A stretch of 64,000 nt of DNA, taken from a virus (Duplodnaviria > Caudoviricetes). A model generated the notes under the pieces. That model was not told where the DNA came from. It did not search any database and saw only the letters and a list, made by a program, of their open reading frames with translations. Shown piece after piece: positions 1,570 through 57,098 of this stretch. The translations under genes were made by a program, and so were the position numbers. The first letter of the stretch is position 1; the number at the start of each line of letters is the position of its first letter. Location: the IMG/VR virus record IMGVR_UViG_3300049988_000245, positions 201,896 through 265,895 of that record. One strand, given 5' to 3'.

Positions 1570-1992
1570 CTAGAGCCCGGAAGCCCATCGGAACTTGAAG
1601 AACACTGCCATATCCTCGTCTGCGAAGGAGAATTTCAGCCCCTTCACATCTCGGGTGACACGGACTCCGAGGTCGGTCCATTCGTAGCGCCCGAAGATCG
1701 AGTACTTTGCCTTGGCGTGTTCTTCGAGCCATTCCCGAATCTCGAACATGACGTCCGAATCTGGAACCTTGATGAGAACGCTGTGCTGGCAGAGATCGGG
1801 TCCAACTATGTGCGAGACGAGCGCGGCCAGCGCTGGAAACGTCTCCCCGCCCTTCTTCTTCGTGTGAACAGTACCGTTCATCAGGTGGGACCATCGAAGT
1901 TTTATGTCCGAGATTCCACCATGCGCAACTGCTGCGGCCATCGTTCCTTTCCCGGTGTGCCCCCACACGTCCAAAAGATTTTGGAGCCGCAA
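1570..1992 (-). CDS. FKLRW-motif family protein
   Basis: Ends FSFADEDMAVFFKFRWASGL; has the EIREWLEEH helix typical of the family. Start uncertain. Confidence 0.75.
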   Translation of the reverse strand: MRLQNLLDVWGHTGKGTMAAAVAHGGISDIKLRWSHLMNGTVHTKKKGGETFPALAALVSHIVGPDLCQHSVLIKVPDSDVMFEIREWLEEHAKAKYSIFGRYEWTDLGVRVTRDVKGLKFSFADEDMAVFFKFRWASGL

Positions 1993-2076
1993 TTTTAGGT
2001 CAACCGAAAGGAAAATGCCACCCGTAAAAATACGGATTGCGCACCAAAATAGGACATTCTGGTGGGACCGTATAGT

Positions 2077-2796
2077 TTAGATACGAACCACGAGTGCTGA
2101 ATCACTGTCGGTGTGCTGCACAACGTACGCACGATCCATCATGTTTACGCTCCAACCTTGACCGAGTAGCACAGCAATGTTTTGGCCAGCAGCAATGTCG
2201 TCCATGGACATCGAAATAGCTGCTTCGTTTAGACCTTGCTGAGACATTAATTCGTTTAATTCGCCGAAGCCAACGAACTCGAATTTATGCACTTCGTGAC
2301 CACCACCCAGGGTTAGTACGCCTCGGCTAAGAGACGCAGAAGTGAGATCGCTTGGGTATAGGAAGGTAAGAACTGCCTCTGAGAGGTTGTCCTCCTCGGG
2401 GTCGATCACTGCTTTACGAACTTCTTCCTCTGAGAACGGAACCAGATCATCATGGCCACGCAGATGCATTTTCCAGTTATCGATGTTCGCCAGCGGAGCG
2501 ACTTCTTCTAATAGAGCGGTCACATTTTCTGGGAGCATGTTGTTCTTGAGAAGTTCGATGAACACCATGTAGTAGCCCTGCGCGTCCGGAGCGGGAGAAA
2601 TCTCCGTATCGATCAATTCCACGGCGGAGCGTTGAAGGAATCGATTCAGGTCTTCGGCCGCGCCATGTTCGGCGACGTAGAAGGCGATGACGATCGCCTC
2701 GTCATCAATTTTTGATTCGTACTCGTCCACGGAAATCAATGGAAGAATCAGGTCTTCGAGGTCGCCCCCTCGCATGCCTTCGTACAGATTAGCCAT
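2077..2796 (-). CDS. Conserved jumbo-phage hypothetical protein
   Basis: Start moved to ATG 2796 (MANLYEGMRGGDLEDL), overlapping the upstream stop; globular acidic ORF. Confidence 0.8.
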   Translation of the reverse strand: MANLYEGMRGGDLEDLILPLISVDEYESKIDDEAIVIAFYVAEHGAAEDLNRFLQRSAVELIDTEISPAPDAQGYYMVFIELLKNNMLPENVTALLEEVAPLANIDNWKMHLRGHDDLVPFSEEEVRKAVIDPEEDNLSEAVLTFLYPSDLTSASLSRGVLTLGGGHEVHKFEFVGFGELNELMSQQGLNEAAISMSMDDIAAGQNIAVLLGQGWSVNMMDRAYVVQHTDSDSALVVRI

Positions 2797-3382
2797 TCGG
2801 AACACCTCCCTTAGCCGGAGGCGCGGCCGGTGCCGCTGGAGGGGTGGCCATCGGGTCCCCGCCTGGAGGCTGGTCCATCGGATCGCCGCCCGGATTATTA
2901 GGATCGCCCTGGCTTTCTTCATCGTAGCCAGACTCGTCGTTCATGCCGCCGTCCTGAGCGTCCTGAACGTCTTCCACGTCCACTTCTTCGTCGTAAAAGT
3001 CCAACTGACCGGCATTGAGTTCAGAAATCAGACGGCGAGGAATCGAGATTCGAACGAGCCAGACCTTCTTGCCCTCTGCATCTACCTCGGCCTCGTCCAA
3101 ATCTTTTGTCTCGCCCTTGGGGTCCTCGTGGGCCTTGGAAAAATCCACGCGAACGCCGTGCTTGAGCAAGCGAAGTCCTGCGCGGGGGTCGGGCATCTTC
3201 TTGTGATCGTACTTGATCGTCATATCGAGCCAATATCGGCGGACCTTAGGTCCCTCGACGATCTCACCGTCAATCCAGTTCTTGAACACGTATACGTCGA
3301 GTGAATCTAGAACATCTTCCATCTGAATAAGAAGATCGAGCAGATGTGGAGAATCTTCAAGTTTTTCGATATCAGCAGGCAT
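2789..3382 (-). CDS. Conserved jumbo-phage hypothetical protein with acidic/Pro-rich tail
   Basis: LLDLLIQMEDVLDSLDVYVFKNWIDGEIVEGPKVRRYW resembles a core gene of large T4-like phages; TAAATA upstream at 3411-3416. Confidence 0.8.
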   Translation of the reverse strand: MPADIEKLEDSPHLLDLLIQMEDVLDSLDVYVFKNWIDGEIVEGPKVRRYWLDMTIKYDHKKMPDPRAGLRLLKHGVRVDFSKAHEDPKGETKDLDEAEVDAEGKKVWLVRISIPRRLISELNAGQLDFYDEEVDVEDVQDAQDGGMNDESGYDEESQGDPNNPGGDPMDQPPGGDPMATPPAAPAAPPAKGGVPNG

Positions 3383-3435
3383 GGATTCACATCAGGTTGA
3401 ATTACCTGAGTATTTAGTTAGATGTGAATGGACAA

Positions 3436-3468
3436 TAAAAAACGCAGCACCCTGGAAGGTGCTGCGTT
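3436..3468 (-). terminator. Rho-independent terminator
   Basis: AACGCAGCAC-CCTGGAAG-GTGCTGCGTT hairpin with an A-run on its left (U-tract on minus), downstream of 3494-4219. Confidence 0.8.
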
Positions 3469-3493
3469 AGATAGATTCGTGTGGGATTGTGTA

Positions 3494-4219: not shown

Positions 4220-4343
4220 GGACTCAGGTACCTTTCAGGTGCGCCCCTAGTTGGTTCGGGGTCGCTTTTCCCTGCTGCAATTTCGTCCATATATGACAAA
4301 TAATCGCAATGCAAGCCGATTCCATTTTTTGGTTTACCGAATC

Positions 4344-4532
4344 TTAAAAATTGTGTCGAGGCGGCTCGCCAAACCCTTGAAAGACCACACAAACTTTGAA
4401 CGAATTTCGTATTATCATGCCATTTTTATTCCCAAACCGCCGTATTTCAGGTTTTAATTCCGAAAGTATTTCATCACATTCGTCAGTAATCGAAGCCCAA
4501 AACGGAAGACACAAAAGGCTTCGGTTGACCAT
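4344..4532 (-). CDS. Small hypothetical protein
   Basis: ATG just after the stop of the upstream gene; AT-rich, no motif. Confidence 0.35.
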   Translation of the reverse strand: MVNRSLLCLPFWASITDECDEILSELKPEIRRFGNKNGMIIRNSFKVCVVFQGFGEPPRHNF

Positions 4533-4536
4533 GCGG

Positions 4537-5133: not shown

Positions 5134-5144
5134 TTTATAATCCT

Positions 5145-6526: not shown

Positions 6527-6534
6527 TTTGCTCC

Positions 6535-8651: not shown

Positions 8652-8762
8652 AATATCTCCATTTGGGCAACTTGATTAACCGACAAGATACTCGCTCGAT
8701 CACGTCTACGTCATTAAAAAACAGACTTAAACACGCGTATAAATAGACCTAGGGAGATTCAT

Positions 8763-14573: not shown

Positions 14574-15095
14574 ATGAGCAGAACAGTTGATCCGTGGGGA
14601 CGGGTTGTCCTCGATATCGGTGACCTCACCGAAATTCTCTATTCCGGCCTGAAAACCGATGACGTGTACGTGGCCGAAGGCGACGAGACTGCGCGGTTCA
14701 ATGCGCTTTGTCGGGCCTGGGATCGGCCACAGTACGCTTTGCGGGTCCCGGAGGCCCCAGAGCACTCTCCCGAACAGGAGCACGCCACACGCGCCTCCCA
14801 ATGGCTGGTCTGTGAGGAGCTACGCGGGATGAACGTGCGCGACTTTCTCATCAGCGCGTGTGCGACCGATGCTCAGCGGGAGCGGGTGAACGCGGAAATG
14901 GACCTTTATGAGGAACGCGAACTCGAACCCCTGCTTCAGACGATGATCTGTCTGGTCGAGCATTTCCGGGCGAACAAGGTGGTCTGGGGTGTCGGTCGTG
15001 GTTCGTCCGTGGCCAGCTACGTCCTCTACATGATCGGGATTCACAAAATCGATTCGATGAAGTACGGCCTGGAGATCGGGGAATTCCTGAAATGA
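14574..15095 (+). CDS. dnaE: Stand-alone fragment of DNA polymerase III alpha subunit (split DnaE)
   Basis: WGVGRGSSVASYVLYMIGIHKID is the DnaE palm motif; only 173 aa, lacks the DxD motif. Confidence 0.85.
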   Translation: MSRTVDPWGRVVLDIGDLTEILYSGLKTDDVYVAEGDETARFNALCRAWDRPQYALRVPEAPEHSPEQEHATRASQWLVCEELRGMNVRDFLISACATDAQRERVNAEMDLYEERELEPLLQTMICLVEHFRANKVVWGVGRGSSVASYVLYMIGIHKIDSMKYGLEIGEFLK

Positions 15096-15406
15096 TCACG
15101 CATCGCGAGGTTCGCGTGACCATCACGGAGAAGACATATGATCCCGAGGATGGTGGCCCCGTGTTTATCCTCCGCGTAGGATTGTCCCGCCGCCGGGGGT
15201 TCAGTACGATTCTGTACGAGAATTTAGAGGAACGGGATTCTGCGTCGATCTCCCCCGCGATACGGGATTGGTGCGTCGAACAATGGGCGGGGGAAGAGTT
15301 CTCCTTCAATCCGTTCGATGATGAAGAGGTGTGGGTCCGGAGCTTTGCCCAGGCGATGGCGTTCAAGCTGAGGTGGGACGGGAAACACGCCAGTGCTGGA
15401 ACTTAA
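15092..15406 (+). CDS. FKLRW-motif family protein
   Basis: AIRDWCVEQW...VWVRSFAQAMAFKLRW. Confidence 0.85.
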   Translation: MITHREVRVTITEKTYDPEDGGPVFILRVGLSRRRGFSTILYENLEERDSASISPAIRDWCVEQWAGEEFSFNPFDDEEVWVRSFAQAMAFKLRWDGKHASAGT

Positions 15407-15680
15407 GATCGTTATCCACGAGAAGGTCGCACCCGGATCGTTCCCGATCGAGGTTCGCCTTGATCTGACGGACGAATTCTTTATCAAATCCGGGTGGAGA
15501 AACACCATCCATGCTCAGCAACACATGACCGATTGGTGTCGCGAACGCTGGGGCAAGACCACGGGCGAGACCTATACGCTCGAAGAGGCCCGATGGATGT
15601 TTGTCGGTAAGCGGTTCTACGTCCGCACCGAGGCCCAGGCGATCGAGTTGAAGATGCGGTGGCACGGGGCGACGCCGTGA
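15393..15680 (+). CDS. FKLRW-motif family protein
   Basis: MTDWCRERWG...FYVRTEAQAIELKMRW. Confidence 0.85.
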   Translation: MLELKIVIHEKVAPGSFPIEVRLDLTDEFFIKSGWRNTIHAQQHMTDWCRERWGKTTGETYTLEEARWMFVGKRFYVRTEAQAIELKMRWHGATP

Positions 15681-15931
15681 TCGTCGTTCTTACGATCGAA
15701 CAGCCTGAATCGACCGAGTTGATTTTCAGCCATAGCGGGAGTTTCAAGCATGGCTTGAACGCACAGAACCGCCGTGACATTCAAGATTGGTGCATCCATC
15801 AGTGGGGATTACCAACTCGGGATAGTGGCTGGGAAATCCACTATGCCGATGGGTACATATTTGTGCGTACGTCCGACCGCTCCGCCGGAATTAACGCGAA
15901 GATGCGTTGGCACGGCGTGTTGGACGACTAG
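15677..15931 (+). CDS. FKLRW-motif family protein
   Basis: GTGA overlap start; DIQDWCIHQWG...IFVRTSDRSAGINAKMRW. Confidence 0.8.
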   Translation: MIVVLTIEQPESTELIFSHSGSFKHGLNAQNRRDIQDWCIHQWGLPTRDSGWEIHYADGYIFVRTSDRSAGINAKMRWHGVLDD

Positions 15932-16593: not shown

Positions 16594-16836
16594 TTACCAC
16601 CATCGGAGTTTAAAATTAACCACATCCTGCTCTTCACGAAACAGGATGAAATAGGTCTGATGGCTCACGTCCCAATAGGGTGTCGCGCGATCAACCAGAA
16701 ACTCGCGACACCATACGTGAATCTCTGGGTAAAAATCAACCTCCTGCGAGAGAATCGTTCGACCAGAATTTTGGAACTTGGGGATACCAAAGAATCTTGC
16801 CGCCTGCTCACGTGTGAGTTTAAGCTTTATGATCAC
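16594..16836 (-). CDS. FKLRW-motif family protein
   Basis: EIHVWCREF...ILFREEQDVVNFKLRWW. Confidence 0.85.
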   Translation of the reverse strand: MIIKLKLTREQAARFFGIPKFQNSGRTILSQEVDFYPEIHVWCREFLVDRATPYWDVSHQTYFILFREEQDVVNFKLRWW

Positions 16837-17243: not shown

Positions 17244-17561
17244 ATGGCGAACCCGTATAAGCGCACCTCCACCCCGACGATCACCTACGTGGGCGAGTAC
17301 GGCCACGAGTCGTGCTTTCGTATTCACCTGCTGAAGGAAGAGGGGCTGAACGCGCTCCTGTTCCGGGGCGAGATCGCCGAGCATCTTCTGAAAGAGATGG
17401 TCGCCCACCGCCTGGGTAATTCGATCCGTGGGGTAGAGCTACCCGACAATCCAAAGAAGGCCGACTTCTTCCTGATGATCGACCGGTCTGAGATTCGGAC
17501 ATTCACCAGTCGGTTCGAGGTGTCCGGGTACAGCCCCGATCTGGCCGGGGAGAGCGTCTGA
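17244..17561 (+). CDS. Hypothetical protein
   Basis: 105-aa ORF, TGATG-coupled to the next gene. Confidence 0.75.
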   Translation: MANPYKRTSTPTITYVGEYGHESCFRIHLLKEEGLNALLFRGEIAEHLLKEMVAHRLGNSIRGVELPDNPKKADFFLMIDRSEIRTFTSRFEVSGYSPDLAGESV

Positions 17562-17887
17562 TGGCACCATGGATAAAGCCGCTACCGAGGAAAGTACCTG
17601 ATCCGATTCAACAATACGATCTCGTCTACGATTTCTATGAAACGCGTAGTCTCGATCAGAGGTCAGATGTCGTCCGGGCGTTTCTTGACTACGAATACAT
17701 GTTCATGCCAACACGACACGACGGATATTATTGGTCTCTCAGGATTTATCAGAGAGGTGTGCTGCTCAATCCAGCAATCCTATGGTGCAACGAACGCCTC
17801 GAAGGGACCAATTGGGTCCGGAAAGGCGAATGGATTTTCGTCCGTAACGAGATATCGGCGTTCGAGTTCAGGATGCGTTGGTGCTGA
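17561..17887 (+). CDS. FKLRW-motif family protein
   Basis: AILWCNERL...WIFVRNEISAFEFRMRWC. Confidence 0.85.
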   Translation: MAPWIKPLPRKVPDPIQQYDLVYDFYETRSLDQRSDVVRAFLDYEYMFMPTRHDGYYWSLRIYQRGVLLNPAILWCNERLEGTNWVRKGEWIFVRNEISAFEFRMRWC

Positions 17888-18341: not shown

Positions 18342-18919
18342 AGTCCGCTCCCACTTTGGTCGCGGCCACGCTGAGCCTTGATCATGCTGGCCATATCACC
18401 AAGGTGGAACGGCAGCACCTTGAGCGTGCGGATCAGATGCTTGCAGGCGATCCCCTTAAGCTGGGGGTTGCGGATGTGCGGGTAGCGATCCTCGTGGTAG
18501 ATTGAGGCGTCCATCTGGTCGAGGATGTAATTGAATCCCCAGAACGTGAACGATGGGCAGTGGCAGTGAAGCTTGATGTCGCCGCCCCAGAGGAGCAGGC
18601 GCGCAGCTTCGTTCGCGTTGATCGACGGATCGTTGACCTGCTCGTCCCAATTGTTCCACTGAACGTACGTCTCCCAACCATTGTACTTGTTGGGGACGAA
18701 GAACTTCATGATGTTCGCCTTCGTGGTCACGTACTTGACGTGGGGAATCAGTGGTGCCCAATCGCGGAACGGGAGCTTGGCGTTCGTCGCACCTGCGACG
18801 CCGTTCGGCACGATTTCCTGCATCAGGTCTTTATAGTGAAGTTCGTCGAGGCGAGCGGGGACCTCGTCGCAGAAATAGCGCGCGGTGCTGCAATGAGCGT
18901 GTTCTGGGTGGCTGCACAT
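18338..18919 (-). CDS. SWIM zinc-finger protein
   Basis: LHCHCPSF...IACKHL (CxC-xn-CxH); start set at ATG 18919, 5 nt after TAAATA. Confidence 0.8.
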   Translation of the reverse strand: MCSHPEHAHCSTARYFCDEVPARLDELHYKDLMQEIVPNGVAGATNAKLPFRDWAPLIPHVKYVTTKANIMKFFVPNKYNGWETYVQWNNWDEQVNDPSINANEAARLLLWGGDIKLHCHCPSFTFWGFNYILDQMDASIYHEDRYPHIRNPQLKGIACKHLIRTLKVLPFHLGDMASMIKAQRGRDQSGSGL

Positions 18920-19352
18920 GAGCTTATTTAGGAAAAAGGGCAAGACGATTCCCGGATTGTTCAACCGGTATCGCCGCAAGCAAGGAAAAGGCACGCCGCT
19001 GTTCTGGACCTGCGATAAGAAACTGTTCCACTACAGTGGAATCGACCAGTTCGATCATCACCTGTTCGACGCCTTTATCACGTATAAAGCGCCTCATTGC
19101 TTCGAGTGGGGAGCAGATTCTCCGAGCACCCTTTACATGCCGGTTCTCGATTGGATTCGAGAACACATGCAAGGCCGGGCGCTGTTCTCGTACGATCCAA
19201 TGATCCTCAGCGGGTACATCCTGCTGGAACATCCCGACGACGCGTTTGACTTCCGGATGCGATTCTCTGAACCTCAAAGGGTCCTGCCGGACAAGAACGT
19301 GCAGGTGGAGGCGAAGCGGATCGTTGAGAAGTACGGGCTTGACGTACTATAG
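18918..19352 (+). CDS. FKLRW-motif family protein
   Basis: VLDWIREHM...ILLEHPDDAFDFRMRF. Confidence 0.75.
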   Translation: MSLFRKKGKTIPGLFNRYRRKQGKGTPLFWTCDKKLFHYSGIDQFDHHLFDAFITYKAPHCFEWGADSPSTLYMPVLDWIREHMQGRALFSYDPMILSGYILLEHPDDAFDFRMRFSEPQRVLPDKNVQVEAKRIVEKYGLDVL

Positions 19353-22643: not shown

Positions 22644-22719
22644 GCTCCCTTCGTCTAGCGGTTAGGACATTCCCCTTTCACGGGAAAGATCAGGGGTTCG
22701 AATCCCCTAGGGAGCGCCA
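22644..22719 (+). tRNA. trnE: tRNA-Glu (anticodon TTC)
   Basis: GCTCCCT/AGGGAGC acceptor stem, GTC/GAC D-stem, TTCCC-CTTTCAC-GGGAA anticodon arm, GGTTCGAATCC T-loop, encoded CCA; 76 nt. Confidence 0.97.
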
Positions 22720-22722
22720 ATT

Positions 22723-23013
22723 ATGACTAGAGTTCCCGGCGGTGCTTTTCTGATGTTCCCCTACCAGTCATCGGTCGTGCACTCAGTAGTGGGGGCGGAG
22801 ACCCGTAGGGAAATCAAGCTCCATCTTCCCCACACCGTGAACAGCATGGCCGAGTACCGCTACGCTTCCGCTTGGTGCGTAGAACACCTGGGTCCGGGCG
22901 TCCTTTACGGCGATCAACCCTACGATTACACCCGCCGTTGGGCCAGGGTGGGGACGACCATGCATTTCCGCTGCCCCGATGATGCGTTCGCGTATAAGAT
23001 GCGCTGGGGTTGA
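22723..23013 (+). CDS. FKLRW-motif family protein
   Basis: ASAWCVEHLGPG...MHFRCPDDAFAYKMRWG; start may be 22753. Confidence 0.85.
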   Translation: MTRVPGGAFLMFPYQSSVVHSVVGAETRREIKLHLPHTVNSMAEYRYASAWCVEHLGPGVLYGDQPYDYTRRWARVGTTMHFRCPDDAFAYKMRWG

Positions 23014-23023: not shown

Positions 23024-23536
23024 ATGTACGGATTGACGCCAGGGGTGTTCCGCTTTCGCGACGACACGCTGGACGCGTTCGAGGTCTACGAGACCATCGA
23101 AGGGGCGTGGCTGGCAGCGTTCTACGAGTACCACGCGGAGCGGGTGGACCGCGACGGCATCATTCTCGATGTGACCAAAGGCGGGTTGTCCACAGGTCAT
23201 TTGTTCATGTCGGAGAGCATGGCCGATCGAAGAGATCGGTACAGGCGCTGGGACGAAAGCTCGCTCTTCGACAAAGCCGCGCTCGACCTCTGCCGGACGA
23301 TTGACGCGGAAATTCTGCGCGATCTTGTCAATCACGTCCTGCAAGAGAGACGGTCGAACGCAGGTGATCCGGCTCACAACAAGATCATCGAGACCACCGC
23401 GATCCCCATGGGGATGCTCTCCAGTTTCGACAGGACGACCCCTGACGGGCTTCTCGCACATGAGCAGATGCTGCGCACGTTCAACGCCCCAGGGCCTCAG
23501 GCGGCCCGCTTGCGCGGCCTTGGGCTGATCCTGTGA
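23024..23536 (+). CDS. Hypothetical protein
   Basis: GAGGGA SD before ATG 23024. Confidence 0.75.
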   Translation: MYGLTPGVFRFRDDTLDAFEVYETIEGAWLAAFYEYHAERVDRDGIILDVTKGGLSTGHLFMSESMADRRDRYRRWDESSLFDKAALDLCRTIDAEILRDLVNHVLQERRSNAGDPAHNKIIETTAIPMGMLSSFDRTTPDGLLAHEQMLRTFNAPGPQAARLRGLGLIL

Positions 23537-23772
23537 GGACGCACTTCCATAGCGACGCCGTGGTCCTCGACGGCGATTGGGAAGGTCAATCTTTCCCGCA
23601 CCGCTTCATCATGCTTGGACTTGCTCAGCGTCGTGGATGGTCGAAGGGCGTAGAGGCGTGGCTTTCCGAGCATGTCGGCGCGCACGAGGATCAATGGGTC
23701 ACCAACAGCATGGGTGACGTGTTTATCAAGGACGATGCGGCGGCCTTCGCCTTCAAAATGCGGTGGTGCTGA
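23533..23772 (+). CDS. FKLRW-motif family protein
   Basis: VEAWLSEHVG...VFIKDDAAAFAFKMRWC. Confidence 0.85.
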   Translation: MRTHFHSDAVVLDGDWEGQSFPHRFIMLGLAQRRGWSKGVEAWLSEHVGAHEDQWVTNSMGDVFIKDDAAAFAFKMRWC

Positions 23773-23773: not shown

Positions 23774-24004
23774 ATGCGCCGGGCTTACGCTCATGCGCCC
23801 AGCTTAAGCAAACCGGGCGAAATTCTATTCCTCTACGTCGCCGCCGATACGTCGAGGCTCGAAATTGAGGCACGGATTTGGTGCGCCGAGAACATCGGTG
23901 AGAACGGCGTGAAGTGGACGTTCAACGACCTCGGCGACATCATCATCTACATGGAGGACGGCTTCAGCGATGCCGCCTTCGCGTTCAAGCTCCGCTGGTG
24001 CTGA
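23774..24004 (+). CDS. FKLRW-motif family protein
   Basis: ARIWCAENIG...DGFSDAAFAFKLRWC. Confidence 0.85.
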   Translation: MRRAYAHAPSLSKPGEILFLYVAADTSRLEIEARIWCAENIGENGVKWTFNDLGDIIIYMEDGFSDAAFAFKLRWC

Positions 24005-25091: not shown

Positions 25092-25442
25092 TCACATCAT
25101 GGCGAGGCGGGCCACCAAAAGGTCATTGCGGAAATCATCCTCGCTTCCTTTGAGGAGCGCATAGATGTCGCTTCCAAAGTAAACGTCCTTGAAGAATACC
25201 GTCCATGTCGGGCCGATCATGCGCGTAGTTTTCCAGAACATCTGAATCTTGAACTGGCTGTTCAAGATGGATACTTCTATGATCTTCTGCGGTATACAAC
25301 CGGATGAATAAGATTCGCGATTATTCCATAAGAGATTGGTGACCGTCAGGAGTTCGACTCGCGACAGCGTAATGCTCTCGTACTCGCCGGATTGCTCAGC
25401 GGAATCCCAGCTTGAGCATGACGAGATCGGATCGGAAAGCAT
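25092..25442 (-). CDS. Hypothetical protein, paralog of 25396-25698 (start uncertain)
   Basis: ITLSRVELL and LKGSEDDFRNDLLVARL align with the neighbouring gene. Confidence 0.65.
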   Translation of the reverse strand: MLSDPISSCSSWDSAEQSGEYESITLSRVELLTVTNLLWNNRESYSSGCIPQKIIEVSILNSQFKIQMFWKTTRMIGPTWTVFFKDVYFGSDIYALLKGSEDDFRNDLLVARLAMM

Positions 25443-25698
25443 CTTCGTCACCCTCAAACCGCAGTTTCGCGATTCCTTCGATGATGTCCGGATAGGCCGG
25501 GTCCTCACGGAACCGCCACACGCCATCGACGCGGGTAAACGTGTATCCGACTTTGGCAACCCCTTCCACGTCGATGTCCATACCCATGACGGTCACGCGA
25601 CGCATAGCGGTTACCAGTGGTATTTCCGTCGCACAGAGCATTGTGCCGAGCGTTTTCAGTTCGTCCATAGTCAGGTCGATCAGTCGCATCAGAGCCAC
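25396..25698 (-). CDS. Hypothetical protein, divergent FKLRW-like subtype
   Basis: LRFEGDEDAFRSDLVMLKLGFR. Confidence 0.75.
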   Translation of the reverse strand: MALMRLIDLTMDELKTLGTMLCATEIPLVTAMRRVTVMGMDIDVEGVAKVGYTFTRVDGVWRFREDPAYPDIIEGIAKLRFEGDEDAFRSDLVMLKLGFR

Positions 25699-26063
25699 CT
25701 CAGTTTGAACGCCATATAGTCGGCCTCCGATCGAAACCCATAGGATACGTCGGACGGCGTCTGCGTATCATGAAGGGATTTCTCGATCCATTCGATGACC
25801 TCGGAATCAGACATCTCACCGGCCTCGAACATCTCAACAACTTTTTGGCGGAAGCTTGGGTGATCGTTGAAGAACTCGACCATCTCGAATTCGTTCAGGT
25901 TGAGCCAATCGACAAACTCAGGGCGATACGCCTTTAGGGATTGTTCCCGCAGATTCAGCGTATGGTGGACGGGAAACTCCGGGACCCCACCCGTACGAAC
26001 GCGGCGGATCGGATGGGGTTCGACCACGTCCAGCGCCATAGGATTGGCAGTGACGAAGATCAT
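25689..26063 (-). CDS. FKLRW-motif family protein
   Basis: EVIEWIEKSL...YGFRSEADYMAFKLRWL. Confidence 0.85.
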   Translation of the reverse strand: MIFVTANPMALDVVEPHPIRRVRTGGVPEFPVHHTLNLREQSLKAYRPEFVDWLNLNEFEMVEFFNDHPSFRQKVVEMFEAGEMSDSEVIEWIEKSLHDTQTPSDVSYGFRSEADYMAFKLRWL

Positions 26064-27926: not shown

Positions 27927-29567
27927 TTAGGCGGCGAGCGGGAGGTTGCGAGCGAGGTACTTCACCGAGGGCTCACGCACCTCGTCGAAGGTGTACTCGC
28001 GCTTCAGGTCACCATTCCGGAAGGTCTCGACGAGCGAGTTCCGCCAGTGGTTGCCGTCGAGCGGCAGGGTTTCCCAACCACCCTCGTGCACCAGGGCGAG
28101 CTTGCCCCGCTTGGAGCGCTTGCCCGGATCGGTCTTCGGGTCCTTGAAGACTTCTCTCCATTCCCCGTTGATCTTGATCGCGGAGCACTTCATCGCGAAC
28201 TTCATGTCATCGCGATTAACCTTCTGGAGCAGACCCCCGCCCATACCGAACGCGATATTGTCGGTGGCGAAACCAGCGTCGGTGAGATTCTGGAGAATCT
28301 TCTCGATCACCTTCTCGTCGTCGATGCCATCGCCCTGGATCACCCGGACGTGGTTGAGCACCTTGTACCCCTTGGAGTTGATCGTGTAGCCGAACTTCTC
28401 GGCCAACCGCTCAACCGTCTCCACGGGGATCGTGTAGACGTTGCCGGAGTCGGGGCGAATGATGACGGTCGCGCCCGAATCGATCACGTGCTGGCGAAGC
28501 TCGGTCCCCCAGATGTTATCGACTGCGTTAAAAAGGTCGTACGAGTCGGACACCACCGCCACGTATGAGCCCGGACGGGCGAACTGCCGGAGCATGTTCC
28601 GGTAGGCGTCCACCTCGGCTTCCTTGCCCCACGAGGTGATCGTGGAGTGTTCGGCCGCCGGGATCGAGAACCCCGGCATGATCGCCGAGTAGTACTTACG
28701 CGCCGCGCGGATCGCGCTGAGCGTATCGGTGCCCTCGAAATTGATCATGTGGGCGATGCCACCGATCGCGGCCGACTCTTCCGACGACGTCCCACGGGCG
28801 CCGAAGTCGTGCAGGCGCGAGGGAAGCAGAACCTCGGGGATGTCCGAAGTCAGGTCGAGGAACCGCTTGATGACCTTCTTGGCGGCGAACGACTTGCTGG
28901 CCACCGTGGTGGGGAACCAGATCGCACGCAGCAGGGCGGTCTCCAAGAACGAGGTGAGCCAGAAGCAGTTCGGATCGGTGTTGACGATCGTCAACAGGAC
29001 GTTCTTCACGGTGATGACCGAACCCTCGGGGGCCGAGTGGATCGAGATCGGCAGCTTGCCGCCGAGCTTATCGACGATGTACTGCCAGCCCGCCCGGTTG
29101 AACGGAACCCTGTGCTTCTCGTAGACCTCGGCGGCCTCCTCGATCATCTCCTGGGTGACGCGAACGGTGAGGTATTCTTTCGCGAACATCTGGAAGCCCG
29201 CATACACGGCCACGTCGTAGAGGCCGCCACGAGATTCGATGTACGAGTACACTTCGGTCGTACCCGGCGGGTACTGGAGGAAGTGGCTGGCCTTGTACGA
29301 ATCACCATTGAGGATGATGTTGTGCCGACCCTTGGCCTGCTTGATGTACCGCTTCCGGGCGGCCTTCACCTGCTCGCGCGCCATCAGGGCGAACATCTCG
29401 GCGAAGTTGGTACACTCCCACACTTCCTTGGAGAAGATGCCGTCGCGGCGACCGCCAGTGGTCTGTGCTTCGAGCCACTGACGGGTCGAGGAGTATAGAA
29501 TCCCGTTATCGAGGAACTGATTCGGGGGGAACTGCGAAAACGCGTTGGTCTGTGCTTCGTTTGACAT
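27927..29567 (-). CDS. nadV: Nicotinamide phosphoribosyltransferase (NAMPT) with N-terminal extension
   Basis: DSYKASHFLQYPP, LHDFGARG, PAAEHS, VVSDSYD, IIRPDSG, VIQGDG, AFGMGGGLLQKVNRD motifs. Confidence 0.95.
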   Translation of the reverse strand: MSNEAQTNAFSQFPPNQFLDNGILYSSTRQWLEAQTTGGRRDGIFSKEVWECTNFAEMFALMAREQVKAARKRYIKQAKGRHNIILNGDSYKASHFLQYPPGTTEVYSYIESRGGLYDVAVYAGFQMFAKEYLTVRVTQEMIEEAAEVYEKHRVPFNRAGWQYIVDKLGGKLPISIHSAPEGSVITVKNVLLTIVNTDPNCFWLTSFLETALLRAIWFPTTVASKSFAAKKVIKRFLDLTSDIPEVLLPSRLHDFGARGTSSEESAAIGGIAHMINFEGTDTLSAIRAARKYYSAIMPGFSIPAAEHSTITSWGKEAEVDAYRNMLRQFARPGSYVAVVSDSYDLFNAVDNIWGTELRQHVIDSGATVIIRPDSGNVYTIPVETVERLAEKFGYTINSKGYKVLNHVRVIQGDGIDDEKVIEKILQNLTDAGFATDNIAFGMGGGLLQKVNRDDMKFAMKCSAIKINGEWREVFKDPKTDPGKRSKRGKLALVHEGGWETLPLDGNHWRNSLVETFRNGDLKREYTFDEVREPSVKYLARNLPLAA

Positions 29568-29617
29568 GATCAAAGCTCCTTTGATCGTTGTACTGTGGCC
29601 GGTCTATCCAGCCACAG
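29568..29617 (-). ncRNA. Structured leader: AUAGA-loop hairpin plus SD-sequestering hairpin
   Basis: CUGUGGCUGG-AUAGA-CCGGCCACAG, 6 nt, GAUCAAAG-GAG-CUUUGAUC, then AUG. Confidence 0.7.
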
Positions 29618-29635
29618 GGAGAAAAGTCGATTTGT

Positions 29636-30859
29636 TTATTCGTCGTTCGGGTTGGCGGTGAGCGCCTGGATGATCGAGTAGTGATCCTCGAACATGAACT
29701 CCGGCGAGATCGCACCAGGGCCTTTGAGGGGCCACCACTTCACGCGATGGACTTCCGATTCCTGGCCCTTGATCCGGGGAAGGCGTACGCGCTCACCGGA
29801 CTTGCGGGGAGGGGTCTTGAGGTTGATCAGCGCGCAGTGCGTGATCGTCCGACCGCGACTGGAGCGGTGTACCGAGTCGAAGTAGCGAATCTTCCGAGTG
29901 CGGCCCCGGAGAATCCCTTCGGGAACCTCGATCGAGGTCTCTTCCTTGAGTTCCCGGTAGATCGCATCTTCGATGCGCTCGTGGTCTTCGAGGAAGCCGC
30001 CGGGAAGCGCCCAAAGGCCCTCGCCGGGCATCGACTTGCGCTGAACCAGCAGAACATGCCCGGCCTGGATCACGCAGGCATCGACGGTCTGGAAGATCGG
30101 CGGATACTGAGGCTTGGCCCGAAGCCAACCCAGAAGCTTCTGCACCCAGCGGTGCTTCAGCCAGGACGCCGGGACCAGCGACGTGTCGATGATCGCGTAG
30201 CCCTGCTTGTACTTCTGCACGTGCAGGTATTCGGCTTTGACCTTCTCGTACGCCTTCGGCTGATCGATCTCGAATCTCTCCAGCCAGTTGATGATCGGCT
30301 CTGGCAGAATCGACGTGTCCAGCGGGTCGGAGGTGAGGAAGTACTTCTCGCGCAGCGGGGTCGCTGACAGATTCGTCGTATTGACCACCGCAACTTCTTC
30401 CCAAAGCGGAAACATGTTGAGGTAGAACGACGTGCCGTCCTTCTTATGACCGACGAGACCAATCTGAGCGTCTTCGTCGAGGCCGAAGTGCAGTCGGGCT
30501 TCCTCGGCCTGTTCCTGAACGTTCAGAATCCAGGCGTCGTTGTTGTAAGTGGAATCTTCCAGCGGAAGGCAGATCACCCGGCTGCGGAGGTTTTCCGGCA
30601 GGGCCGACATGATCATTTCGGCGCGTTCTTCCCAGGAGAATGGGTTGAAGTACGTCCGGGGCTGATTGGCCGAGCCGAGAAGGACGGCGAGGAATTCGCA
30701 GGACTTCAAGCCCTGGATAATCGCGTCGAGGTGGCCGAAGTGGAAGAACTGGAAACGCCCGATAAAAATCCCGAGGGCGACGGATGCAGGTTTGATAGAT
30801 GCAGGTTTGATAATAGAGGGCGTGCCTGTGAGGCGCCCCTTCAGGGTCGTGGTAGACAT
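29636..30859 (-). CDS. nadM: Bifunctional NMN adenylyltransferase / Nudix ADP-ribose pyrophosphatase
   Basis: GRFQFFHFGH (HxGH), NPFSWEERAEMI, PLEDSTYNNDAW, GHKKDGTSFYL; YPPIFQTVDA...LPGGFLE...RELKEET Nudix box. Confidence 0.95.
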   Translation of the reverse strand: MSTTTLKGRLTGTPSIIKPASIKPASVALGIFIGRFQFFHFGHLDAIIQGLKSCEFLAVLLGSANQPRTYFNPFSWEERAEMIMSALPENLRSRVICLPLEDSTYNNDAWILNVQEQAEEARLHFGLDEDAQIGLVGHKKDGTSFYLNMFPLWEEVAVVNTTNLSATPLREKYFLTSDPLDTSILPEPIINWLERFEIDQPKAYEKVKAEYLHVQKYKQGYAIIDTSLVPASWLKHRWVQKLLGWLRAKPQYPPIFQTVDACVIQAGHVLLVQRKSMPGEGLWALPGGFLEDHERIEDAIYRELKEETSIEVPEGILRGRTRKIRYFDSVHRSSRGRTITHCALINLKTPPRKSGERVRLPRIKGQESEVHRVKWWPLKGPGAISPEFMFEDHYSIIQALTANPNDE

Positions 30860-31574: not shown

Positions 31575-32246
31575 ATGTCTCAGGATCGTTTCCTCACTGT
31601 CGATGCCACCCAGGCGGATGCTCTCGTGGCTCGCGCTAACGCCGCGATGAAGGTTCTGCCGCCCAAGGATCAGTCCTTCATCGCAAGCATGCTGACCCAG
31701 CACGAGAAACACCTCAACCGCAAGAACCCTATGCAGCGTCTCTCGGGTTCGCAGTGGTGGTGGATGAACCACAAGGCGGAGACCGCCGAGACCCGCAACG
31801 AGGTGATCCCGGAGCGTGAGCGCGTCGATATCGGAGACATGAAGGGCATCATCCGAATGTTCGACAAGGCCCGCCAGCACCTCAAGAAGCCCGGCGTGAC
31901 CTACGCGATGATGGTGGCCGAGCAGGTCTCCTCCATCCGCCTGAAGCCCGCCTCCCCGAACGGCCGGGTTCCGGACTCGATCGACGTGGTCAAGGATGGC
32001 TTCTGGCTCGGCCGCATCCTGAAGAGTGGCGCGTTCGAGATTTCGCCCCGCGCTCGGGAAGAGGCCCGCGAGGTCGTCCCGGTGCTGCGCGATTTCGCTG
32101 CCAACCCGGAGACGGGCGCGAAGAAGTCGGCGCGCCTCACCGGTCGGTGCTGCTTCTGCTCGCTTCCCCTGAAGGACGAGCGCTCCACCGATGCCGGATA
32201 CGGCAAAACCTGCGCGTCTCACTTCGGTCTGGCTTGGGGTAAGTGA
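31575..32246 (+). CDS. Protein with C-terminal DUF6011-like Zn finger
   Basis: GRCCFCSLPLKDERSTDAGYGKTCASH; SD GGAG before ATG 31575. Confidence 0.85.
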   Translation: MSQDRFLTVDATQADALVARANAAMKVLPPKDQSFIASMLTQHEKHLNRKNPMQRLSGSQWWWMNHKAETAETRNEVIPERERVDIGDMKGIIRMFDKARQHLKKPGVTYAMMVAEQVSSIRLKPASPNGRVPDSIDVVKDGFWLGRILKSGAFEISPRAREEAREVVPVLRDFAANPETGAKKSARLTGRCCFCSLPLKDERSTDAGYGKTCASHFGLAWGK

Positions 32247-32662
32247 TGAGCGAGCAGCAGATCGCCGAAATCACCGAGAAGATGATGCAAATCTTCAGAG
32301 CCCAGACGGGCTCCCGACTCCCTGCCGAACAAGTATCGAAGCTCACCGCGATGATGGTGGCTTCGAACGCAAAGTTGAATCAGGCCCAGCAGGCACCCGT
32401 CAGACCAACCACGCCGGAGAAGCCGAAGCCGCTGGAATTTGACTACAAGAAACGTCGTAACCGGACCGTGTTGAAGCGCTTTCCGTTCCTGCTCACCGTG
32501 AAGCATGCCAGCACGGCCGTTCGCGACGAGATCGACGCGTATCTGAATATGATGCTCGGCCCGAGCGGACAGGATTGGACCCGTACGGGTTATTCCGAAT
32601 ACATTTTCACCAAGAAAGAATACACCGTCCAACTGATCGTGCGCTTCCGTGGGACCCAATGA
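32246..32662 (+). CDS. Hypothetical protein, divergent FKLRW-like
   Basis: EIDAYLNMMLGPSGQDW...YIFTKKEYTVQLIVRF. Confidence 0.75.
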   Translation: MSEQQIAEITEKMMQIFRAQTGSRLPAEQVSKLTAMMVASNAKLNQAQQAPVRPTTPEKPKPLEFDYKKRRNRTVLKRFPFLLTVKHASTAVRDEIDAYLNMMLGPSGQDWTRTGYSEYIFTKKEYTVQLIVRFRGTQ

Positions 32663-33868: not shown

Positions 33869-34130
33869 GCGAACAATCTATCTGAAACTTGATCCGCTCC
33901 CCCCAGGTTCAGCGCGCGGTGCGGCGCAATCCAAGATACTGCAATTTGTCTTCGACCTGGGTGTGTACGCGGAGCGAACCCCGTTCACGGTTCTCCGGGT
34001 GGAGCAGGTTGATTGGTGGGTCACTGCGATTATAATCAACGCGGATGACAACATAGCGTATCTCGCACTTCGATTGAAGTACGGTGAGATGATGATCGAC
34101 TTCCTTCAAGCTGAGAACGAGATTTTCTGA
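33858..34130 (+). CDS. Hypothetical protein, divergent FKLRW-like
   Basis: AIIINADDNIAYLALRLKYG. Confidence 0.7.
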   Translation: MTTERTIYLKLDPLPPGSARGAAQSKILQFVFDLGVYAERTPFTVLRVEQVDWWVTAIIINADDNIAYLALRLKYGEMMIDFLQAENEIF

Positions 34131-34651
34131 TGAAGATCGAATACAAGACCGGCGACCTCCTGGCCGGACCCGAGCGGTTCATCTGCCACGGTTGCAACGC
34201 TCAAGGGGTGATGCGTTCGGGAATCGCCGCTCTAATTCGAGACATCTACCCGAACGCCTACACGACATATCGGGCGCATTATGACGAGCACGGCCTCGCG
34301 TTGGGGCACACGATCTTCGTCGAATGCAAGCCCACGGATTCCCGTTACCGCGCTCGCACGGTGATCGACGCGATCACGCAGGAGCACTATGGGCGCGATC
34401 CCAACCGGGTCTACGTCAGCTACGAGGCGATCGAGAAGGCCATCAAGAAGATCGACGACGAGGCGCGCCTTCGCCAGGAGACGCCGTCCCGCGCGCGCAG
34501 CCATGGCCTGATCGAAAGCGTTGGTTTTCCGCTGATCGGTGCCGGACTGGCCAATGGGTCGTGGAAAATCATCTCATCAATCATCGAAGAGCATTCCACC
34601 GACTTCCAGCCGGTCGTCTACCTGTTCGACGGAGTCATGCCGACAACATGA
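34130..34651 (+). CDS. Macro domain protein (Poa1p/DarG-like ADP-ribose processing)
   Basis: IEYKTGDLL...HGCNAQGVMRSGIA...GFPLIGAGLANGSWKII. Confidence 0.92.
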   Translation: MKIEYKTGDLLAGPERFICHGCNAQGVMRSGIAALIRDIYPNAYTTYRAHYDEHGLALGHTIFVECKPTDSRYRARTVIDAITQEHYGRDPNRVYVSYEAIEKAIKKIDDEARLRQETPSRARSHGLIESVGFPLIGAGLANGSWKIISSIIEEHSTDFQPVVYLFDGVMPTT

Positions 34652-34654: not shown

Positions 34655-34720
34655 ATGTTGGCGGAGATTGTTTTCTTCGACCCGAACGAAGAGTTGGAGT
34701 TCAAGCTCAGATGGGGATGA
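34655..34720 (+). CDS. 21-aa micro-ORF consisting only of the FKLRW motif
   Basis: MLAEIVFFDPNEELEFKLRWG*; same frame as the macro gene (TGA TTC ATG); ATGA overlap with the next gene. Confidence 0.65.
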   Translation: MLAEIVFFDPNEELEFKLRWG

Positions 34721-35019
34721 CGTTCAATCTAAGCGTGAATCACGCTGCAATGATCCTGCCGGACTTGCCCATTAAGGGTGGAGCCGACATTTCTCCAAAA
34801 ACAAATATTATCCTGACCGTTCTGGTAACAGCCGCTCGACGCAGTGGCGACTTCGATCTAAGGCGGGATTTCGAATCGATCCAGGGTTCGGCTACCATCC
34901 TGAACGAGGATATCGCGACGTGGCTGGCCGAGCGGGGGATCACCTATATTCTGGGAAAGATGGACATCACCATCCACGACGATGATCAGGCGATGGAGTT
35001 CAAGTTGCGGTGGCTTTGA
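34717..35019 (+). CDS. FKLRW-motif family protein
   Basis: DIATWLAERG...ITIHDDDQAMEFKLRWL; start at the ATGA overlap with the micro-ORF. Confidence 0.85.
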   Translation: MTFNLSVNHAAMILPDLPIKGGADISPKTNIILTVLVTAARRSGDFDLRRDFESIQGSATILNEDIATWLAERGITYILGKMDITIHDDDQAMEFKLRWL

Positions 35020-51331: not shown

Positions 51332-51357
51332 AACTGGTGGGTTTGGCCCCACCAGTT
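51332..51357. terminator. Intergenic hairpin
   Basis: AACTGGTGGG-TTTGGC-CCCACCAGTT; the A-run lies on the left, so the U-tract is better on minus. Confidence 0.6.
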
Positions 51358-51440
51358 ATATGATTCCGCAGTCAATCATAGTATTTTAGATGGGCTTAAA
51401 TCCCATCATAAATACTATGATTACTGTTTCGGAGTTATAA

Positions 51441-55163: not shown

Positions 55164-55167
55164 ACAA

Positions 55168-55192
55168 CTTGCCCGGATCAGTCCGGGCGAGT
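55168..55192 (+). terminator. Hairpin after 51441-55163
   Basis: CTTGCCCGGA-TCAG-TCCGGGCGAG. Confidence 0.55.
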
Positions 55193-55231
55193 AAAATATG
55201 CCTTTAATAAATAGTTAAATAATTGGGTACC

Positions 55232-55411
55232 ATGGATACGAAGCCTATTTCAGACGATGCCGATGATTTGGCCAACACCAAGATTATTGAACATCTTCTC
55301 ATTCGCGATGGCAAAACCGGCCTCGTGCTTGTGAATCGGCAAGGTTCTGTGGTCGCTCCACTCATTGCAGAGAAGCCACAGAATGAAGACCACCGTAAAG
55401 CCAATGATTGA
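55232..55411 (+). CDS. Small virion protein, paralog of the N-terminus of the next gene
   Basis: IEHLLIRDGKTGLVLVNRQG vs IEGFVLIRDAETGEVLVNKKN. Confidence 0.7.
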   Translation: MDTKPISDDADDLANTKIIEHLLIRDGKTGLVLVNRQGSVVAPLIAEKPQNEDHRKAND

Positions 55412-55970
55412 AGGATTCGTTCTGATCCGTGATGCGGAAACCGGCGAAGTCCTCGTTAACAAGAAGAACGCCGTTCACTTCGAGAATATGAGCGAGGCCA
55501 TCGCGTTGTCCCTGGCGAATCGTTCATCCGGTCACGTGCACGAGATGGTCTTTGGAAACGGCGCCTCGACCGTATCTGGTACAGGAGCGATCACCTACTT
55601 CCCGCCGAACGTCACCGGGTCGGATGCGCGCCTGTACAATCAGACGTTCTCGAAGATCATCGACGATTCGAGCCCGCTCAATGTGGATCGCTCGGCCAAC
55701 AACCTTCGGGTCCAGCACAAGCTCAATGCGACGTACGCGGATATCGTCGCGACCTGCTATCTCGGCTATGCTGAACCAGCGGGCCAGGAGGCGTTCGACG
55801 ACGCAACCGACAATGACGGTAATTTTGTGTTCGATGAGATTGGAATCAAGGGCTTTGATCCGACGCCGAACAATGGAAAGCTCCTGACCCACGTGATCTT
55901 CCATCCGGTTCAGAAATCTTTGAATCGAACCATCGAAGTCGTTTATACGCTTCGAATCTATATGAACTGA
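55383..55970 (+). CDS. Conserved baseplate/tail structural protein
   Basis: VNKKNAVHFENMS...FVFDEIGI...LLTHVIFHPVQKSLNRTIEVVYTLRI. Confidence 0.88.
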   Translation: MKTTVKPMIEGFVLIRDAETGEVLVNKKNAVHFENMSEAIALSLANRSSGHVHEMVFGNGASTVSGTGAITYFPPNVTGSDARLYNQTFSKIIDDSSPLNVDRSANNLRVQHKLNATYADIVATCYLGYAEPAGQEAFDDATDNDGNFVFDEIGIKGFDPTPNNGKLLTHVIFHPVQKSLNRTIEVVYTLRIYMN

Positions 55971-56163
55971 GGATTCATGTCAGAAATCGATACGATCAAG
56001 ACGGAATACAATAGTACTCTCGACCCGAGCCTCTTAGAGGTGATTGCGGTTCTTGAAAATTCAAAATCGACACCCTGCGCGAACTCGATTACGGTCGCCG
56101 AAGCTTCAACCAACAAGTCGTAATTTTATCGCGACTCTGATTATTTTTAGGAGATTTTAGTCT

Positions 56164-56721
56164 ATGTCTTTCACCGTAAGACTGACCACCGGCACGGCAT
56201 TGGCTGAGGTCGCAGATCAGACCATCGTTACCACGGAATGCCCGTTGTCGCTTGTCGGCCGTGGCGCGGTCAACTACGCACAGGCACACAGCGAGAACTT
56301 CGTCCACCTTCTGGAGAATTTCGCCAACACTTCTGCCCCCGCGAATCCGGTTGTTGGTCAGCAGTGGTACGACACCGTTGCGGGCCAGATGAAGTTCTGG
56401 AACGGCTCGTCCTGGCTCCCGGTGGGCGGCGGCGGTACCGGTGCTACCGGCATGATCGCCCAGGGTAGCCGTCTGGCTGGCTTCACGGGCGCCGTGCTCG
56501 CAACTGCCACCGGCACGGTGACGGTCGGTGTAATGCTCTCCGAGGGCGTTATCGTGGGTATCGTCTCGAACCAGACCCTCCCGGTGGACGTCCTACCCCC
56601 GACCGTGGTCCTCGACGGCGTCTCCTACAACGTGGCTTCACGCTTCACCGATGGCGTCAAGGCAGGCATGACCTTCGCCGTCTCCGGCTCGACCCCGTTT
56701 CAGGTTTACGTGACGCAGTAA
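56164..56721 (+). CDS. Virion structural (tail-fibre-associated) protein
   Basis: LSLVGRGAVNYAQAHSENFVHLLENFA..APANPVVGQQWYD. Confidence 0.85.
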   Translation: MSFTVRLTTGTALAEVADQTIVTTECPLSLVGRGAVNYAQAHSENFVHLLENFANTSAPANPVVGQQWYDTVAGQMKFWNGSSWLPVGGGGTGATGMIAQGSRLAGFTGAVLATATGTVTVGVMLSEGVIVGIVSNQTLPVDVLPPTVVLDGVSYNVASRFTDGVKAGMTFAVSGSTPFQVYVTQ

Positions 56722-56729
56722 GGTGATTC

Positions 56730-56762
56730 GGCGCTACGCGGTAAGATTCATCGTGTAGCGCC
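56730..56762 (+). terminator. Probable terminator
   Basis: GGCGCTACGCG-11 nt-CGTGTAGCGCC followed by CTTGTAATTT. Confidence 0.6.
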
Positions 56763-56822
56763 CTTGTAATTTCGTAAAACGAATGTCAGAACCACTGATA
56801 TTGCGAGTACGAGATTTTCATT

Positions 56823-57098
56823 ATGAATCAAATTTTTCAAGTTAGCCTTGGCCATCATGAGATGGCCATGAATGCGATCTATGAGCGCTATCCGAATCGC
56901 CGTGCTGCGCGCGCCGCCTGGGGCGAGGCCGAGTACGTCTTCGTCATCCCCCGGTCCCACGACACGGACCTTGGTGAGATCGAATCCTGGCTCAATGAAA
57001 TTGGGATCGACTTCTGGAAAGAGGCTACCGGTCCGTTCACGTTCCTTGAATTCCGCTCCGATCTCGACGCAGTTGCGTTCAAGCTTCGCTGGCTCTGA
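56823..57098 (+). CDS. FKLRW-motif family protein
   Basis: EIESWLNEIG...FLEFRSDLDAVAFKLRWL. Confidence 0.85.
   Translation: MNQIFQVSLGHHEMAMNAIYERYPNRRAARAAWGEAEYVFVIPRSHDTDLGEIESWLNEIGIDFWKEATGPFTFLEFRSDLDAVAFKLRWL

Follow-up and report, generated by a model that had tools for sequence, protein, structure and literature searches.

A compact, undescribed protein domain present in at least 90 diverged copies in a T4-related jumbo phage

The window examined here is the final 64 kb (64,000 nucleotides) of a 265,895-base Caudoviricetes contig (IMG/VR record IMGVR_UViG_3300049988_000245; CheckV completeness 57%), and it encodes a series of short open reading frames (ORFs) whose products end in or near an F-K-(L/M)-R-W motif. 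These ORFs are paralogs of one undescribed compact domain of about 65–80 residues, found in at least 90 copies in the contig. The copies occupy variable regions of a T4-related jumbo phage. The structural proteins of this phage are distant relatives (~24% identical) of those of the RaK2, PA5oct and Atu_ph07 group of jumbo myoviruses, and the contig DNA is present in leaf and silage metagenomes from several studies. Judging from sequence and predicted structure, we think it an even call whether the family is a diversified scaffold of non-virion host-takeover or counter-defense binders.

A large paralog family in the contig and beyond

Family membership was determined with a hidden Markov model (HMM) that was trained on the 70 C-terminal residues and run iteratively over all six-frame open frames of the contig. 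The search converges on 90 frames (E<1e-3), so the count of about 20 members given in the first-pass annotation of the window is too low genome-wide. Members cover 29.2 kb, or 11% of the contig, and have a median length of 96 amino acids (aa), with lengths and coverage both resting on simple start-codon choices. As that annotation had noted, they lie on both strands, in arrays and alone; they are distributed over 47 loci, comprising 28 single genes and arrays of up to nine. Within the window, a regular expression for the motif was run on 528 ORFs, and hits were counted in ORFs of at least 40 aa. The motif lies at or near the C-terminus in 14 of these, and within nine residues of the end in 13 of the 14 (the sole exception, the 18918 member, has a 28-residue tail). 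Because only ~3–4 other hits occur among the 528 ORFs, about 0.5 hits at ORF ends would be expected by chance. All 14 ORFs score HMM E values of 1e-7 to 1e-18. Thus, the motif family is real, with 14 of the 15 ORFs originally listed supported by both methods. The fifteenth (34655) also exists, but as a 21-residue mini-ORF with the last strand and helix only. Six further ORFs had been listed as divergent versions; one of them (32243–32662) is borderline (E 0.16), and the other five are unsupported, with 15928, 20817 and 33858 at E 6.6–94. The window total is 14 full members, one 21-residue fragment and one borderline case.

Relatives are numerous in metagenomes. A profile of an 89-domain alignment was compared with 1.84 billion cluster representatives; it matches 5054 at E≤1e-3, of which 38 reach E≤1e-10, and the same motif closes most of the 150 best-scoring sequences. 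Ten representatives were checked; three are called "hypothetical protein" only, and seven are without a name. Large phages are the origin of those relatives whose source was examined. For example, related contigs of 77–122 kb have a coupled run of eight to nine small genes beside a gene pair encoding NAMPT and a fused NMNAT-NUDIX protein, with 18 family members within the 20-kb piece examined. Similarly, a 27.7-kb contig has three coupled members, and a fourth alongside, adjoining a family-B DNA polymerase.

Among cultured phages, the profile matches 46 proteins in Sinorhizobium phage Phosso (469 kb), four in Atu_ph07 and three in PA5oct, compared with at least 90 here, and zero in the related jumbo phage Serratia phage BF. 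The homologs in Phosso (XYS97803.1 and ~45 others), PA5oct and Atu_ph07 are of similar size, are all deposited as "hypothetical protein", and have the same signature near the stop: W-C/L-x-E ... W ... F-x-F-x-D ... A-x-x-F-K-L-x-[WF]. PA5oct gp274 and gp275 and Atu_ph07 AUZ95034.1 and AUZ95037.1 carry this signature by eye. When window pieces and members were searched by megablast and tblastn in 50,697 phage records, the only match was a weak one to Phosso, and a word-indexed protein search returned the query protein itself and one 64% relative, with nothing more.

The family was said at the outset to be unassignable to any characterized one, and this holds: Pfam, PHROGs, NCBIfam, PDB, BFVD, AFDB and Swiss-Prot yield nothing named. 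Specifically, hmmscan of more than 40 proteins (window members, long members and metagenomic relatives) against Pfam-A, PHROGs v4 and NCBIfam 20 gave no common hit at E≤0.1–1, and the best E value in a PDB sequence-profile search was 0.28. A literature search using motif strings, Phosso and jumbo-phage paralogs found no description of the family, and it is not mentioned in the papers on the Phosso-related phage AP-J-162 and on PA5oct (for PA5oct, in the main article).

Tandem arrays of more than 30 genes have been described in coliphage 121Q and Bacillus phage G (Hua et al. 2017, PMC5646251). Like known jumbo-phage expansions, the family consists of dozens of diverged small genes, arranged head to tail in variable regions and filling about a tenth of the genome. 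Unlike the expansions that form one block, it is spread over many loci on both strands. Since giant paralog families in jumbo phages have already been described, the family is new but the phenomenon is known. Nonetheless, at least 90 copies in 57% of a genome place it, to our knowledge, among the largest single-family expansions in a bacterial virus. A second point of comparison is the small early genes of T4-type phages, which are non-essential and lie in variable regions; those of T4 itself are mostly unrelated to one another. The family resembles these in consisting of short coupled ORFs between core modules, with late promoters not seen upstream and with products that are not known to belong to the virion, but differs in that one domain has been multiplied ~90 times.

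The domain and its predicted fold

Alignments were made of the 89 domains from the contig and of a larger set of 231 sequences, the latter with an 81-column consensus. The signature of the domain is [FY]-P-[YH]-x-F in strand 1, E-x3-W-C-x-E-[QRN]-F-G in helix 1, R-W in strand 2, and [FI]-x-F-[RK]-[DN]-[EP]-x-D-A-F-x-F-[KR]-[ML]-R-W across strand 3 and helix 2. A helix of the form acidic-[FY]-F-Q-x-S-[TL]-[IV] is absent from the 81-column consensus. The W-[CL]-x-E helix that had been noticed upstream of the motif is indeed common to the members, with conservation of 97% for W, 77% for C, 63% for E and 82% for G. The N-termini had been described as unrelated; the short extension is truly variable, but the [FY]-P-[YH]-x-F strand that precedes the helix is conserved.

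AlphaFold2 modeling of the 79-aa protein encoded at 23533–23769, using the 89-domain alignment, gave a mean pLDDT of 83.5 and a pTM of 0.71. This first model has short N-terminal strands, a helix (residues 36–47), two strands (55–57 and 62–65) and a final helix (68–78), with pLDDT of 92–95 for the C-terminal half, motif helix included. An independent model of a natural two-domain relative has the same strand-helix-strand-strand-helix unit twice, with a pTM of 0.50 and without confident packing between the domains. The two models agree on this unit, which is predicted to form a truncated ferredoxin-like two-layer sandwich. Because both models make the motif and the W-C-x-E helix into helix 2 and helix 1 of one globular domain, the original proposal of a fixed C-terminal docking helix on variable bodies does not hold. 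The modular picture survives in part, in that some members have foreign N-terminal pieces, including capsid fragments, but the motif does not stand apart as a tail of its own. Position 46 in helix 1 co-varies with the residue that follows the last Trp; this residue is Cys in 38% of sequences with Cys46 and in 13% of those without, which fits a contact between the two helices. The conserved columns (W, C, F, G, W, F, A, F, M/L, W) are overwhelmingly aromatic or aliphatic, and residue type and predicted secondary structure suggest that these positions are buried and form a hydrophobic core.

Structure searches returned no named relative. The best E value with Foldseek against the PDB was 0.86, Swiss-Prot models were no better, and searches of BFVD, AFDB clusters and the ESM Atlas found uncharacterized phage proteins only. 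VIA-align against 48,161 chains gave a mix of HMA, ACT, RRM, DCoH and aIF1 structures with a best Z of 5.0, within the tool's chance band, and no solved anti-defense protein is among the structural matches from Foldseek (PDB) or VIA-align. The family models are like HMA, ACT, RRM and acylphosphatase proteins in having the same element order and an antiparallel sheet that bears the two helices on the same side. The ferredoxin-like and DCoH matches score Z 4.5–5.0 over 55–70 residues, which are chance-band scores, with identities of 4–11%. Unlike four-stranded ferredoxin-like folds, the family models are without the fourth strand, or have N-terminal strands instead; unlike ferredoxin-like and DCoH proteins, the family has no metal, ligand or catalytic motifs. 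The ferredoxin-like resemblance of the models is one of shape alone, and no kinship is claimed. DCoH-type enzymes (pterin-4a-carbinolamine dehydratases) combine a beta-beta-alpha-beta-beta-alpha topology with a catalytic His triad. The topology of the first model is compatible with theirs, with 1uso, 4low and 2ebb matching at chance-band Z scores of 4.5–4.9, but a DCoH-type enzyme is unlikely because there are zero conserved His columns in the family alignment.

The copies are strongly diverged. Nearest paralogs have a median identity of 36% over partial alignments, the best pair scores just 57 bits, and recent duplicates are absent among the contig paralogs. The best match lies within the same genome for 61 of 91 members here and 29 of 42 in Phosso, and the two phages share no clear one-to-one orthologs. 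This sequence pattern suggests an old family that has grown by lineage-wise birth and divergence, with varied surfaces. Copies differ in loops, in charge and in N-terminal extensions. The predicted pI ranges from 4.05 to 11.3 and is below 7 in 58 of 91 members, with a median net charge of −1. Most members consist of the bare domain and a short extension, and ~15 have 60–120 additional N-terminal residues. Pfam searches with the N-terminal extensions of ten long members found nothing besides a Gp23 capsid fragment. This T4-type major capsid fragment begins the member at contig positions 175996–176457, outside the window (Gp23 4–46, E 3.5e-12), and we take it to resemble the conserved N-terminal region of T4 gp23 in which the Gol peptide lies. 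A different Gp23 fragment (312–338, E 4e-4, under the curated cut-off) begins the metagenomic relative P0111, and in an Atlas cluster near the family, 13% of members have Gp23 hits. Natural tandem two-domain proteins, in which the motif is internal, occur in several lineages.

Motif codons, expression and possible function

The motif codons vary synonymously, using all six Arg codons, five Leu codons, and both AAG and AAA. The codon counts therefore bear out the first-pass claim of selection on the peptide. The further claim that a DNA site is not involved needs amendment, since the codons in arrays are also shaped as a ribosome-binding site. A member was scored as coupled if its stop overlaps an ATG (ATGA, TGATG or TAATG), which is true of 38 of 74 scored members. 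The motif Arg is encoded by AGG or AGA in 23 of the 38 coupled members (61%) versus 5 of the 36 others (Fisher 4e-5); these two codons account for 6.7% of Arg codons in long ORFs, and the excess in coupled motifs has a binomial probability of 7e-18. Similarly, a one-residue tail after the Trp is found in 36 of 38 coupled members versus 24 of 36 others (p 0.003). The choice of AGG/AGA yields GAGG ~8 nt ahead of the next start. These codon and tail statistics show that, in array members, the sequence of the last helix has also been shaped to serve the following gene as its ribosome-binding site. Specifically, the motif codons A-AUG-AGG-UGG double as a Shine-Dalgarno sequence, a by-product of life in arrays that fixes the AGG/AGA choice as well as the length of the one-residue tail. 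Selection acts primarily on the peptide, because uncoupled members keep it with CGN codons. The arrays thus offer a clear case of overlapping genes in which the same codons have been shaped both as a protein motif and as a ribosome-binding site.

What might the proteins do? A host-directed role for the family is plausible. In the reading that we favor, the domain would be a stable mini-scaffold whose variable surface has diversified to give many different binding specificities. The proteins would be cytoplasmic products, neither late-stage nor part of the virion. Each copy would bind or block a different host or defense component, and some copies would bear an added N-terminal piece, such as a fragment of the capsid protein. 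The T4-type late promoter TATAAATA has nine sites in the contig versus ~3 expected, and none of the nine is within 300 nt upstream of a family gene. One site, at window positions 8738–8745, is 25 nt upstream of the 8763 fiber-like gene (676-aa Ig-domain protein, He_PIG). A scan for sigma-70 promoters and terminators showed no enrichment, and an 8-mer search found no promoter motif. PA5oct gp274 and gp275 have no note of detection in virions by electrospray ionization tandem mass spectrometry (ESI-MS/MS), whereas the neighboring gp272 has one; the earlier suggestion of a packaging signal finds no support. T4-type packaged internal proteins have an N-terminal capsid-targeting sequence that the prohead protease cuts; the alignments of 89 and 231 sequences show no N-terminal sequence common to the family, and two members carry fragments of the capsid protein. 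Several points weigh against the scaffold reading. The promoter argument for non-late expression is weak, as it rests on nine sites, and the argument from virion proteomics is also weak, as it rests on very distant homologs in another phage. In addition, conservation in this lineage reaches 97% at K/R78 and 94% at R80, and 81% of members end one residue past the Trp. This conservation exceeds what a hydrophobic core needs and could reflect a shared functional site.

One such site would be a common handle at the C-terminus, a sharpened version of the original docking proposal, with the K-M-R-W-x-COOH end read by the phage Clp protease/unfoldase for timed removal, or by a single partner or oligomer, while the rest of each protein engages different targets. 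The conservation of K/R, R and W at 94–97%, together with the fixed end, would be explained, and there is some suggestive gene order. Members at contig positions 173572–173877 and 175996–176719 lie on both sides of the phage ClpP gene (174001–174543); in the distant phage PA5oct, two of the three members (gp274 and gp275) are within 1.2 kb of ClpP gp272 (the group lies at 180349–182187), for which we roughly estimate a chance of ~0.01; and in Phosso, members flank a second ClpP-like gene. However, Atu_ph07 has no member near ClpP, and with 47 loci in 266 kb we put the chance of such adjacency in this genome at about one in four. The AlphaFold prediction packs the helix into the domain with pLDDT >90, and members differ in their final residue (C, G, L, V, A, S or T). 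The internal motif of the tandem proteins, the tails of 2–28 residues in ~19% of members, and the frequent replacement of the motif Arg by T, A, S or Q in Phosso all disfavor a free-end tag. The one-residue tail is also tighter in coupled genes and is partly explained by ribosome-binding-site spacing. An ssrA-type degradation tag, which would be an unstructured tail with a fixed tripeptide at the free end, was considered and rejected on in silico grounds, given the predicted helical end, the variable last residue, the longer tails and the internal motif in tandems. We consider the handle unlikely, though it is the main rival to the scaffold reading. Many small ferredoxin-like domains dimerize, and the domain could instead be a dimerization unit, with coupled neighbors as equimolar partners that form combinatorial dimers or a larger assembly. 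Translational coupling of about half of the scored members, the tandem fusions and the exposed edge of the three-stranded sheet in the models are consistent with this. On the other hand, the tandem model (pTM 0.50) predicts no defined packing between domains, 28 of the 47 loci are single genes, and a Rosetta-stone test rejected by comparison the idea that the tandem protein P0003 is a fusion of two adjacent genes of this genome. An oligomeric role is decidedly unlikely on this evidence.

The conserved Lys and Arg of the last helix could also bind RNA or DNA, in which case the family would act as regulators or as RNA chaperones. Positions 56, 69, 78 and 80 have conserved basic residues, and RRM, KH, aIF1/SUI1 and aIF2-beta structures are weak neighbors (Z 4.0–4.9), but the RRM/KH-type matches are inside the noise band of a tool whose best Z was 5.0, known nucleic-acid-binding motifs are absent from the family, and the acidic pI of 58 of the 91 members and the negative median charge are not what such a role would predict. 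Nucleic-acid binding is hence distinctly improbable. Least probable by far is that the 3′ repeat is itself a DNA- or RNA-level element, serving as a coupling or recombination signal, with conservation of the peptide secondary. Enrichment of AGG/AGA at the coupled motif Arg, which puts GAGG 8 nt before the next ATG, would fit such an element, as would the 21-residue mini-ORF, which retains this part only and holds the next start codon. Nevertheless, uncoupled members and singletons keep the peptide with CGN, the Leu, Lys and Phe codons vary freely, conservation spans 60 residues and includes sites far from the 3′ end, and the family was found by protein profile at ~20% identity. The codon data mean that this fails as the main explanation. 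Returning to the favored scaffold of host-directed binders, a more elaborate form of it can be imagined, in which ~100–150 copies per genome would make up a combinatorial counter-defense library. Each copy would bind or mislead a different host immune sensor with its own surface or with a fused decoy piece of a conserved phage protein, such as the major capsid protein, and the phage Clp would clear the set on schedule through K-M-R-W-x. This is a speculative and rather improbable extension.

Members in the window, their neighbors and wider significance

The members in the window are listed in Table 1. Gene calls elsewhere agree with two of them: the identical 70-aa product of the 23533 member is called on another contig, and another contig has a 76-aa gene call at the position matching the 23774 member.

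Table 1. Members of the family, and related features, in the window
Feature	Position	Strand	Evidence
Family member, ~123 aa, ends KFRW + 4 residues	1570..1941	-	HMM E 3.9e-9
Family member, 104 aa, first of overlapping 3-gene array	15092..15406	+	HMM E 7.4e-11
Family member, 95 aa, GTG start, 14-nt overlap with preceding gene	15393..15680	+	HMM E 2.1e-14
Family member, 90 aa, diverged (NAKMRW), 22-nt overlap with preceding gene	15659..15931	+	HMM E 1e-7
Family member, 80 aa, ends FKLRWW	16594..16836	-	HMM E 1.5e-12
Family member, 108 aa, ends FRMRWC	17561..17887	+	HMM E 1.6e-10
Family member, 144 aa, FRMRF then 28-residue tail	18918..19352	+	HMM E 1.3e-9
Family member, 133 aa, genome's best HMM score	21166..21567	+	HMM E 1.5e-18
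Family member, 96 aa, just 3′ of tRNA-Glu	22723..23013	+	HMM E 1.2e-14
Family member, 70–79 aa, AlphaFold-modeled protein	23533..23772	+	HMM E 1.2e-15
Family member, 76 aa, start 2 nt past preceding stop	23774..24004	+	HMM E 3.6e-13
Family member, 124 aa, ends FKLRWL, stop overlaps next ATG (TGATG)	25689..26063	-	HMM E 5.3e-10
Borderline, possibly very diverged member	32243..32662	+	HMM E 0.16
Mini-ORF, 21 residues, last strand + helix only, ends EFKLRWG	34655..34720	+	translation
Family member, ~102 aa, ends FKLRWL	34711..35019	+	HMM E 2.7e-10
Family member, 91 aa, isolated among tail + baseplate genes	56823..57098	+	HMM E 4.6e-10

The mini-ORF is in frame with a Macro-domain gene (34130–34651, TGA stop), 3 nt beyond the stop of that gene, and it contains the ATG of the next member (34711). 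It may be what is left of a member disrupted by the Macro gene, an extension reached by read-through, or a device for coupling. The three-gene array is preceded by a 173-aa ORF (14574–15095) that ends in a fragment of a DNA polymerase III alpha NTPase domain (Pfam 19–94 of 260, E 4.6e-10). The stop of this ORF overlaps the start of the first family gene of the array (15092), and its DnaE-like piece, a shortened version of a conserved protein as the capsid fragments are, is the only one in the contig. Pfam searches of the non-family neighbor ORFs found nothing beyond this fragment. Two adjacent minus-strand ORFs in 25092–25698 end similarly to each other (E-D-A-F-R-S-D-L-V-M-L-K-L-G-F and D-D-F-R-N-D-L-L-V-A-R-L-A-M-M). 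The 25092 and 25396 ORFs have no family HMM match in their frame at E up to 100. They may form a small family of their own or have diverged from the family to an extreme degree.

The window also encodes fiber-like genes, a tail lysozyme, a gp5-type hub and three giant ORFs of 1104, 3163 and 1240 aa. A tRNA-Glu (UUC) gene (22644–22719) lies directly upstream of the 22723 member, and contigs of other organisms from the metagenome runs pile up on it. At 27927–30859, a NAMPT gene (548 aa) adjoins one for a fused NMNAT-NUDIX protein (407 aa). The same pair is kept beside family arrays in related contigs, and it presumably resembles the phage NAD-reconstitution pathway of the NARP2 type.

What are the wider implications of the family? 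It is found in more than 5000 metagenomic sequence clusters, yet has no entry in the curated libraries scanned. Since Phosso, which grows on S. meliloti, is a cultured carrier with 46 copies, the function is directly testable. If the copies are binders of host or defense components, the family would offer a large new supply of small inhibitors and help to explain what the "dark" genes of jumbo phages do.

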